Below, in pieces: positions 3,039-26,186 of a DNA stretch of 28,813 nucleotides. The notes beneath the pieces were generated by a model. That model made no database searches, was not told the origin of the DNA, and saw only the letters and a program-made list of their open reading frames with translations. The stretch comes from Thermoproteota archaeon (GTDB lineage Archaea; Asgardarchaeota; Jordiarchaeia; Jordiarchaeales; Freyrarchaeaceae). The translations under genes and the position numbers were made by a program. Each line of letters starts with the position of its first letter. Position 1 is the stretch's first letter. The stretch spans positions 1 through 28,813 of the forward strand of contig JAPDJY010000052.1 in assembly GCA_029258835.1 (NCBI GenBank), in the 5' to 3' direction.

Positions 3039-3202
3039 GCCCCGGTGGTGTAGCCACCTAAGTCTGGGCTGTAAAGGTTTTATCATCACGGACTGCTAAA
3101 CTGGCCCGTAATGTCGATCCGTGGATGGAGAGCAGATTGTCCTGCCTCCCGCGAACCCGGGTTCAAACCGGAGGTGGGGAATAAATCCCGGCCGGGGCGC
3201 CA
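3039..3202 (+). tRNA. trnD: tRNA-Asp(GUC) with four BHB introns (3056-3074 at 17/17a; 3094-3111 at 32/33; 3126-3155 at 46/48; 3167-3184 at 58/59); CCA encoded
   Basis: Removing the four introns gives a 79-nt cloverleaf: acceptor GCCCCGG/CCGGGGC, G73, CCA; anticodon arm ACGGA-CTGTCGA-TCCGT; T arm CCGGG-TTCAAAT-CCCGG. Each intron has a 4-bp central helix and two 3-nt bulges (GTAG/CTGT, ACGG/CCGT, CGTG/CGCG, GTTC/GAAT). The mature D-loop is 12 nt, one more than usual. Confidence 0.9.
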
Positions 3203-3294
3203 CTTTCCTTAACAGCCTCTTAATTTTGCATTGCTTGAGGTTACACGCAAATTATTTAAGGATATTTGAAGCGGTTATGTTTCAGGTATGTGTT

Positions 3295-3477
3295 GGGCGG
3301 GTAGTCTAGAGCGGAAAGCGGGAAACTTGGTATGATTCCCGTGTGGCACGGGAATGAAACCGGGTTTAGCTTGTGCGCCTAAGGGACCCGGTGACCTTCC
3401 GTGTTGTGCGTGGGGCCGGTAGTCCTGGGTTCAATGCAGCGGCGTGAACGCCGTGCGGACAGATCCCAGCCCGCCCA
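3295..3477 (+). tRNA. trnP: tRNA-Pro(UGG) with five BHB introns (3310-3325 at 15/16; 3337-3358 at 25/26; 3368-3382 at 34/35; 3394-3421 at 45/46; 3435-3462 at 58/59)
   Basis: The spliced product is a 74-nt cloverleaf: GGGCGGG TA GTCT AGCTTGGTA TGAT A CCGGG TTTGGGA CCCGG TGGTC CTGGG TTCAAAT CCCAG CCCGCCC A. Central helices GGGT/GCCT, CCGG/CCGG and GTTC/GGAC pair fully (with G-U). GTCT/GGGA and TATG/AATG pair 3 of 4. Confidence 0.9.
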
Positions 3478-3521
3478 TCAATTGCATTTTTTCCTTGTTA
3501 TGTTTTGTTGGGGGTGTTTCG

Positions 3522-5084
3522 TTGAGGTTTGCATTGAGGGGTTATTTTGAGCTTAGCGACGTTCTTTCAGATGATGCTGTGGGGGGAGTTAGGAGGTTCT
3601 TAGGTGAGATTGGTGATGCCGTGTTCAAGAAGGGGGCTCCTCGTGGGAAGGAGGATGAGGCGGCACGGCTGATTAGTTGGGATGTTAGAGGGAATAGGTT
3701 TTATGTAGAAGTTGAGAGTGGAAGGTATGTTCGAGCTCATGTTGCTTTTGTTAGATTGAGGAATGCTTTGGCGGAGTTCCTTGGTTCTAGGTTTGGGTTG
3801 GGAGTTAGGGGCTCTAGGGTGGAAGAGTACGTTTTGGAGTTTGAGCTAGATAGGGAGCCGTTAGAGCCTGTTAATGTTTTGTTTGCTAAGGATGTTAGAT
3901 TTGATGGGAGGAAGGTTACGATTTTACTTGAAGATTTAGATGATGTTGCTTTGGAAAGGAATTATCCTGATAGGATTATTGGGCGTGTGCGGGAGAAGGT
4001 GGCTAGGCAGTTTGTTTCAGGTAAAGGAGAGTTTACCCGTGTTGTTAGACGTAGTAATAAGGGTGTTGAAAGGTATGTGCTTAAGGAGGACCCGACCGAC
4101 TTAGCTATTAGGTTTGGGTGGGTTAAGGAGTATCCTGCAACGGGTGTTTGGCAGATTATGCCGCCTATGGCTGCTTTAATTCGCGCTATGGAGAAGTTGA
4201 TCGTCGACGAGGTCGCTAAGCCGCTTGGCTTTCAGGAGGTGATGATGCCTCGCCTTATACCGTTAGAGGTCGAGTATAGGAAGGGGCATTTTGGCATTGC
4301 GAACGAGATTATTTGGGCTTGCCCTCCTGTCTCCCGTGACCCGAAGGATTTTGAGGACTTGGTGGATTATGTTGAAATTACTGGTGGTCCTCCGCCAGCG
4401 GAATTTTTAAGGGAGAAGCTGCGTCCTCCTCTTTATGGTCTTTCTTACGCTCAATGTGAACCGTTCTATGAGATGTTCCATAGGGAAACTGTTGACTTAG
4501 ATGCTTTAGAGGAAGAACCCATTAAGTTCTATGATAGAAATGGGCCTACTTATAGGTGGGAGAGTGGGGGGGTTAGGGGGCTGGAAAGGTTAAACGAGTT
4601 CCATAGAGTTGAATTTGTTTTTCTTTCGACGCCTAGGAAGTGTATTGAAATCAGGGATTCTATATTGGAGAGAACAGAGAGAATTGTAGATGAAGTGTTT
4701 GATTTAGAGTATAGAGTGGATGCAACCACGGCAGTTTACCTTGAACATGCCGGGAAGATGGAGGAGGAAGGAGGAGGGGACTTCGTTAAAACGTATGACT
4801 TAACCGCTATTTTGCCTTTTCAAACTAAAAGTAGGCCCGAGGCAGAGCTTGAAATTGCAAGCTTCCACGTTCACACGGATTTTTATGCTAAACGCTTCCA
4901 TTTTAGAGATAAAAAAAGGAGGACGGTCTTCACTGGTTGTGCTGGACTCGGCCCCTCAAGGTTTGCATACGTCTTCCTTGTAAGGTACGGTTTCGACTTT
5001 GAAAACTGGCCTAATGAAATTAAGAAGTACATAGGAGAGAAGCTGCCCGAGCCACCCAGAATGTTAACATGGCCTAAGGGGTAA
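3522..5084 (+). CDS. serS: Serine--tRNA ligase, methanogen (rare) type
   Basis: N-terminal SGRYVRAH domain motif, SYAQCEPFY, motif 2 GPTYRWESGG..GLERLNEFHRVE, motif 3 TGCAGLGPSR. Start moved to TTG 3522 (GGGGTG SD-like upstream) because the ORF-track start at 3444 lies inside tRNA-Pro. Confidence 0.9.
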   Translation: MRFALRGYFELSDVLSDDAVGGVRRFLGEIGDAVFKKGAPRGKEDEAARLISWDVRGNRFYVEVESGRYVRAHVAFVRLRNALAEFLGSRFGLGVRGSRVEEYVLEFELDREPLEPVNVLFAKDVRFDGRKVTILLEDLDDVALERNYPDRIIGRVREKVARQFVSGKGEFTRVVRRSNKGVERYVLKEDPTDLAIRFGWVKEYPATGVWQIMPPMAALIRAMEKLIVDEVAKPLGFQEVMMPRLIPLEVEYRKGHFGIANEIIWACPPVSRDPKDFEDLVDYVEITGGPPPAEFLREKLRPPLYGLSYAQCEPFYEMFHRETVDLDALEEEPIKFYDRNGPTYRWESGGVRGLERLNEFHRVEFVFLSTPRKCIEIRDSILERTERIVDEVFDLEYRVDATTAVYLEHAGKMEEEGGGDFVKTYDLTAILPFQTKSRPEAELEIASFHVHTDFYAKRFHFRDKKRRTVFTGCAGLGPSRFAYVFLVRYGFDFENWPNEIKKYIGEKLPEPPRMLTWPKG

Positions 5085-26053: not shown

Positions 26054-26186
26054 TGGTGCCGCGCCCGGGATTTGAACTCCCGGGTCAGCGATCCTCCCGG
26101 GTCAAGGGGTCGAGTGGGCAGGCATATGCCTTGAGCCCCTTATGCTTGGCCGTTGCAGCCTTTATGGGTGGCTACACCAGCGCGGC
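26054..26186 (-). tRNA. trnE: tRNA-Glu(CUC) with three BHB introns (26153-26169 at 17/17a; 26114-26132 at 34/35; 26077-26095 at 53/54); CCA encoded
   Basis: Spliced 78 nt: GCCGCGC TG GTGT AGCCCGGCCAA GCAT A AGGGG CTCTCGA CCCCT TGAC CCGGG TTCAAAT CCCGG GCGCGGC A CCA. Central helices GTAG/CTGC, GGGC/GCCC, CCCG/CGGG. Confidence 0.92.

Follow-up and report, generated by a model that had tools for sequence, protein, structure and literature searches.

A probable tRNA-Pro(UGG) gene with five predicted bulge-helix-bulge introns in a Jordarchaeales archaeon

Does a 183-nt segment of archaeal DNA that yields a proline tRNA only when five inserts are removed encode a working, spliced tRNA, or do five free gaps allow almost any sequence to be joined into a tRNA-like fold? 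The segment occupies positions 3295-3477 (+) of the 28,813-nt stretch of DNA that was analysed (the window), and its six exons and five inserts, designated I1 to I5, are listed in Table 1. Its host is an Asgard archaeon (Jordarchaeales) and not a member of the Thermoproteales, and the closest gene matches in a pattern scan came from Candidatus Jordarchaeia, Jordarchaeum and Jordarchaeales. The coordinates and arithmetic of the initial annotation were exact, with 109 of the 183 nt (60 %) falling in five inserts at the sites it had named. Its ten proposed cuts did give an exact 74-nt cloverleaf, with stems of 7, 4, 5 and 5 bp and no mispairs, which ARAGORN called tRNA-Pro(tgg). The 74-mer displays U8, A14, G18-G19, U33, the anticodon UGG, G37, a UUCAAAU T-loop, A73 and a class I variable loop; CCA is not encoded. 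One intron had been said to lie inside the anticodon, and the 34/35 insert indeed separates U34 from G35. A split or permuted tRNA gene of the type described in Nanoarchaeum, Caldivirga or Thermofilum was considered and rejected, given that all six exons follow one another in order within 183 nt of a single strand. Our preferred reading, to which we assign a probability of roughly 0.9, is that this is a functional tRNA-Pro(UGG) gene, with no other such gene recovered from the assembly and with a transcript predicted to be spliced by EndA and RtcB.

Table 1. Features of the tRNA-Pro(UGG) locus, with the putative splicing motif of each intron, the modelled energy needed to form it and its occurrence in related genomes
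Feature	Position in window	Strand	tRNA positions and content	BHB motif	Predicted cost of forcing the motif (kcal/mol)	Four Jordarchaeum species	Freyr-type family (same order)
Candidate promoter, TATA-like box TTATTTAA	3252..3259	+	After CGCAAA; read from the sequence, putative promoter role				
Exon 1, 15 nt	3295..3309	+	1-15: acceptor 5' strand, U8, D-stem 5' strand, A14, G15				
Intron 1 (I1), 16 nt	3310..3325	+	15/16, D-loop	3/4 central pairs; inner helix 2 bp; outer 1 bp; relaxed	~8-12 in full precursor; ~4 after I3 also gone	Present	Present
Exon 2, 11 nt	3326..3336	+	16-25 including 17a: D-loop G18 G19, D-stem 3' strand				
Intron 2 (I2), 22 nt	3337..3358	+	25/26	3/4 central pairs; inner helix 6 bp; outer 7-8 bp; relaxed	9-11.5, high at every stage	Present	Absent
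Exon 3, 9 nt	3359..3367	+	26-34; last base U34, the first anticodon base				
Intron 3 (I3), 15 nt	3368..3382	+	34/35, within the anticodon (U34/G35)	4/4 central pairs; inner helix 2 bp; outer 2 bp; canonical hBHBh'	~8-10 in full precursor; ~4-5 as sole intron	Absent	Absent
Exon 4, 11 nt	3383..3393	+	35-45: G35 G36 G37, anticodon-stem 3' strand, U44 G45				
Intron 4 (I4), 28 nt	3394..3421	+	45/46, variable loop	4/4 central pairs; inner helix 4 bp; no outer helix; HBh'	~3-4, cheapest	Absent	Absent; unrelated canonical intron at 48/49
Exon 5, 13 nt	3422..3434	+	46-58: T-stem 5' strand, UUCAA of T-loop				
Intron 5 (I5), 28 nt	3435..3462	+	58/59, T-loop	4/4 central pairs; inner helix 3 bp; outer 2 bp; canonical hBHBh'	~4-5	Present	T-loop intron present
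Exon 6, 15 nt	3463..3477	+	59-73: T-stem 3' strand, acceptor 3' strand, discriminator A73				
Candidate transcription stop, T6 run	3487..3492	+	10 nt past the gene; read from the sequence, putative function				

Standard tRNA finders had been expected to miss a gene of this layout, and both of those used were blank at the locus. ARAGORN, applied to the raw window with and without its intron option, made no call there; the Rfam library gave no match at the locus at gathering score; and in a whole-genome search with the Rfam tRNA model the locus was absent from the list even at E<=10. We also used a cloverleaf finder of our own, which tolerates an insert in every loop and junction and takes the reversed genome as its null. 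This finder scored the locus at 73 against a reversed-genome maximum of 57, with 25 loci of the real genome reaching at least 63. Permissive output from the same tool also showed how readily five free gaps can splice unrelated sequence into a tRNA-like fold: it contained dozens of pseudo-tRNAs with four or five 'introns' that ARAGORN accepted, those with five scoring 35-57. The Pro locus scored above every one of them, three of its introns are common to its orthologues, its exons are nearly invariant, and alignment that made no use of splicing motifs found the same five inserts. Contigs of the Logan DNA collection from three other studies carried the gene with zero differences, which rules out an assembly artefact; the DNA of the host recurs in marine and hydrothermal sediment metagenomes. 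Chance or artefact as the origin of the Pro locus is thus scarcely credible, and we regard it as refuted.

Comparison with compact genes addressed the boundaries of the inserts. Motif-free spliced alignment against the compact Pro(UGG) of a different Asgard family (G169) placed inserts of 16, 22, 15, 28 and 28 nt where the initial annotation had them, with 67 of 76 positions identical, and an intron-less 74-nt tRNA-Pro(CGG) (G041) agreed with the predicted product at 66 of 74 positions, free of gaps. Exons 1 and 2 are contiguous in compact Asgard tRNA-Pro genes. When 400 Asgard genomes were searched for joined exons at <=3 mismatches, exons 1 and 2 joined to the first part of exon 3 were found uninterrupted in 18 other genomes and the junction of exons 5 and 6 in 25, whilst the reversed patterns used as controls gave 0 matches in the same 400 genomes. 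With the inserts removed, the sequence is again a canonical tRNA, and it is collinear with its intron-less homologues. Other settings were less suited to the locus: an initial spliced-alignment scan with a cheap intron penalty led to over-fitting, and with a heavier penalty it mis-parsed Pro(UGG) and located Pro(CGG).

It could also be argued that the gene holds fewer than five introns and that part of the supposed intronic sequence is mature, with, for example, a 17-nt variable arm and a 16-nt intron replacing the 28-nt I4. A structure-only version of the finder chose precisely this parse of the variable region, and ARAGORN still called the resulting 86-nt product tRNA-Pro. In every orthologue and in all compact Asgard tRNA-Pro genes, however, the variable loop measures 5 nt and is unbroken at this site, and the motif-free alignment gave 28 nt for I4. 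tRNA-Pro is a class I tRNA, which counts against a long variable arm. We consider the 86-nt product a mis-parse and the explanation behind it very improbable, and retain the five-intron structure.

The inserts were then compared with the archaeal splicing motif as defined by Marck and Grosjean, in which the four exon bases 5' of the 5' bulge pair with the four intron bases that precede the 3' bulge, the bulges measuring 3 nt. I3, I4 and I5 have 3-nt bulges and at least one flanking helix of at least 2 bp, as expected of canonical motifs, whilst the central helices of I1 and I2 each contain one G.A mismatch. The claim that each insert shows bulge-helix-bulge (BHB) geometry was consequently borne out in full for I3, I4 and I5 and applies only loosely to I1 and I2, which fall in the relaxed class. 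This class is frequent by chance according to the preprint of Goswami et al. 2026 (10.64898/2026.10.13.758758, 15 Oct 2026), so that the support for I1 and I2 comes from their conservation and from collinearity with compact genes. For all five introns the cuts of the initial annotation were the best fit among shifts of up to two bases in either direction. By homology alone the I2 junction carries a one-base ambiguity (nt 26 is A or U), because both TGATACC and TGATTCC are found in compact genes. Shifting the I4 boundary by one base also yields 74 nt; the cut adopted here agrees better with the BHB geometry and with G45-G46 in the orthologues. A single large BHB spanning I1 to I3 was rejected after a hand check found only 2 of 4 central pairs. 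Judged from sequence, the five inserts appear to be genuine tRNA introns of the archaeal EndA-type (BHB) class.

Orthologues of the gene were found in four species of Jordarchaeum, which belongs to the same family, and these share I1, I2 and I5 but run straight through the sites of I3 and I4. Their anticodon region reads as an uninterrupted TTTGGG, which fixes the boundaries of I3 exactly. Between the genera the exons are identical at 71-72 of 74 positions (96-97 %), compared with 46-49 of 70-71 positions (~67 %) for the shared introns, and the BHB geometry of the shared introns is the same in all five species, that is, the present genome and the four Jordarchaeum. On the intron side of the I5 central helix the sequence is GGAC, GAGT, GAAT or GAAC, and all four variants form 4 of 4 pairs with the fixed exon GUUC. 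The retention of pairing despite these changes reflects selection on the splicing motif. The site of I1 is also occupied in Pro(CGG) paralogues. From this distribution I1 is old and common to the order, as is a T-loop intron, which lies at 58/59 (I5) in the host family; I2 is a family-level intron, and I3 a gain in the lineage of the host. I4 may likewise represent a gain in that lineage, or else a loss in Jordarchaeum, and a gain is the simpler reading because an intron at 45/46 occurs in no relative.

The restriction of I3 and I4 to this genome, together with the position of one of them within the anticodon, could indicate decay, whereby a former three-intron tRNA-Pro gained two inserts and is no longer processed to a working tRNA. 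The only contig from an RNA library at the locus is unspliced, as decay would have it. This 251-nt metatranscriptome contig is an exact match to positions 3274-3524 and contains the whole gene, with 21 nt on its upstream side and 47 nt on its downstream side but no part of the neighbouring genes. Its extent is consistent with a precursor transcript, and DNA carry-over is another possible source. Against decay, I3 and I4 each show a complete canonical central helix with 3-nt bulges exactly where the tRNA is restored, the exons differ from those of the orthologues at just 2-3 of 74 positions, and the sequence is identical in the DNA contigs of three further studies. Introns at 34/35 are also carried by the Glu(CUC) and Glu(UUC) genes of the same genome. 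A partial tRNA census of the assembly, which is 94.7 % complete, revealed no second Pro(UGG) gene. The Pro(CGG) gene is present at C5:28368-28519 and contains 3 introns. Decay is improbable on this evidence, and a functional gene remains the preferred reading.

The host encodes both a splicing endonuclease and a ligase. Two EndA paralogues, each with PF01974 and PF02778, share 32 % identity, and there is one RtcB gene. In the alignment, as read by eye, one EndA keeps Tyr, His and Lys at what we take to be the positions of the catalytic triad, and the other is without the His. Since one paralogue is without this presumed catalytic residue, the pair probably forms a two-subunit, broad-specificity EndA of (alpha-beta)2 architecture.

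For a functional gene, we infer the following route. A precursor of ~183 nt or more would be transcribed and cut by EndA at ten sites, each after the second base of a 3-nt bulge; RtcB would ligate the six exons into the 74-nt tRNA, and CCA would be added after ligation. The five motifs are probably unable to form together, because the exons measure only 9-15 nt and adjacent motifs share bases, and sequential removal of the introns is therefore likely. Folding energies were estimated with a nearest-neighbour model at 37 and 65 degrees C, and forcing any one of the five BHB motifs was predicted to cost 3-12 kcal/mol (Table 1). The minimum-energy fold predicted for the full precursor includes a nearly continuous 19-bp hairpin made of I2 and the exons on either side of it, and it also pairs I1 with I3. 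For I2, a bulge-free, continuous hairpin is predicted to exceed the BHB form in stability by ~9-11.5 kcal/mol. In the model, I1 and I3 would thus mask each other in the full precursor and I4 and I5 would be the most accessible; the pairing of I1 with I3 may be a built-in splicing order or an accident. The introns would probably be removed one by one, I4 and I5 first, then I3, I1 and lastly I2, an energy-based order that is a weak prediction because no BHB motif is ever part of the minimum-energy fold.

Searching the genome with each intron by BLAST found no copy of I1, I2, I4 or I5 elsewhere. The core of I3, in contrast, matched 11 of 11 bases inside tRNA-Arg(CCG), at C30:22745-22755. This gene (C30:22689-22803, locus L025) has a 19-nt intron at 51/52, within the T-stem, and an 18-nt intron at 59/60. 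Full alignment of I3 to the 51/52 intron (C30:22742-22760) matched 15 of 15 bases with two 2-nt gaps. The Arg intron has a canonical BHB, and the Jordarchaeum orthologues are without it. Of 2000 interior shuffles of I3, only 3 matched any of 62 comparison introns equally well, in a test that is somewhat biased in that the Arg intron entered the comparison set after the BLAST hit. Two lineage-specific introns of near-identical sequence in different tRNA genes suggest copying, and I3 might, tentatively, have been copied from the Arg(CCG) 51/52 intron, or both might derive from one source; we hold this to be possible but on balance doubtful. If true, it would be a concrete instance of a BHB intron spreading between tRNA genes within a genus-level time span, and would suggest, for instance, that an excised intron entered another tRNA by reverse splicing or ligation and that this tRNA was then copied back into DNA. 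Goswami et al. 2026 sought a gene-to-gene route of intron arrival and did not find one in general. A larger family found no support, and the hairpin GCUUGUGC was rejected as a repeated intron: 4 of its 44 occurrences lay in a BHB context, which is about chance by rough estimate rather than computation, and relatives contained no copies above control level.

Standard tools would greatly underestimate the tRNA complement of this genome. Only 12 loci of the whole 94.7 %-complete genome reached the Rfam tRNA gathering score, and ARAGORN and the Rfam tRNA model detect only about one-quarter of its tRNA genes. A structure-based census, made with the structure-only finder, which does not model introns inside stems, recovered 25 credible genes with 65 inserts (2.6 per gene). 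A motif-free census that took 73 compact tRNAs of three distant Asgard genomes as its references gave 15 loci, a low yield because these were too diverged. Together, these two partial censuses comprise ~30 credible tRNA genes. Pro(UGG) was the only gene with five inserts in either census and none had more, with about one-third of the expected set, including Pro(GGG), lying outside both. Genes with four inserts were Asp(GUC), Trp(CCA), Asn(GUU) and possibly Leu(UAA).

Two further tRNA genes of this kind were noted in the window. tRNA-Asp(GUC) lies at 3039-3199 (+), 95 nt upstream of the Pro gene, and has inserts of 19 nt in the D-loop, 18 nt at 32/33, 30 nt in the variable loop and 18 nt at 58/59, all with 4 of 4 central pairs; its finder score was 76 against the null maximum of 57 and its spliced form was accepted by ARAGORN. 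tRNA-Glu(CUC), at 26057-26186 (-), has inserts of 17, 19 and 19 nt, one of which interrupts the anticodon at 34/35 as in the Pro gene, and tRNA-Glu(UUC) (C4:58929-59054) shows the same layout. Adjoining the latter is tRNA-Asn(GUU) (C4:59164-59341, -), with inserts of 34, 17, 36 and 13 nt, a gene that only the motif-free alignment recovered.

The initial annotation had proposed that five introns may be a record, and this did not survive comparison with the literature. Archaeal tRNA genes were credited with up to three introns in the tRNAscan-SE 2.0 paper (2021, PMC8450103), and Goswami et al. 2026 already give as many as five per gene for the same families, a published maximum that removes the novelty of the count. 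That preprint, a motif-free census of 90 Asgard genomes, describes 2.2 intervening sequences per gene (2.0-2.4) in its focal families with a maximum of five, repeated recent gains, many of them on terminal branches, and, for most genomes, a pair of EndA paralogues. In the study of Valentin-Alvarado et al. 2024 (PMC11291895), introns occurred in 92-95 % of Freyarchaeia and Atabeyarchaeia tRNA genes, many of them non-canonical and with multiple introns per gene. The Pro(UGG) gene resembles the tRNA genes of Freyarchaeia/Jordarchaeia and Atabeyarchaeia in these two studies in its clade, in its short BHB-type introns at mostly non-canonical sites and in D-arm introns that annotators miss; it differs in that a new intron, I3, nearly copies a new intron of another tRNA gene. 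It is therefore a well-documented further case of a known system, not a record.

Two more distant systems provide comparison. The multi-intron tRNAs of Thermoproteales (PMC8450103) likewise have EndA/BHB introns, several per gene and at non-canonical sites, with a two-paralogue EndA and introns so close together that the next motif can form only after its neighbour is gone; they belong to Thermoproteota and have a stated maximum of three per gene, whereas the present gene is from an Asgard archaeon and has five. For Pyrobaculum calidifontis, 71 introns in 46 tRNA genes are quoted from Sugahara et al. 2008 as cited in PMC8450103 and PMC11291895. Nuclear tRNAs of the red alga Cyanidioschyzon merolae (PMC3728597) similarly contain several ectopic BHB-type introns, in the D-arm, anticodon region and T-arm, and there the order of removal tracks motif stability. 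Those genes are eukaryotic, have at most three introns each and were verified by RT-PCR, whereas the RNA evidence for the Pro gene is the unspliced contig.

These results leave knowledge of this kind of system unchanged, and place the Pro(UGG) gene at the highest degree of fragmentation reported for tRNA genes, with 60 % intron, a 9-nt exon and a split anticodon. Counts of tRNA genes made with standard tools are misleading as a measure of genome quality for such genomes. An essential, single-copy tRNA with five introns implies that the organism would rely on ten correct cuts and five ligations for its production. The sister-genus orthologues that are without I3 and I4 offer a clean before-and-after pair for the gain of BHB introns, and the likeness between I3 and the Arg(CCG) intron is a testable lead on where new introns may come from.
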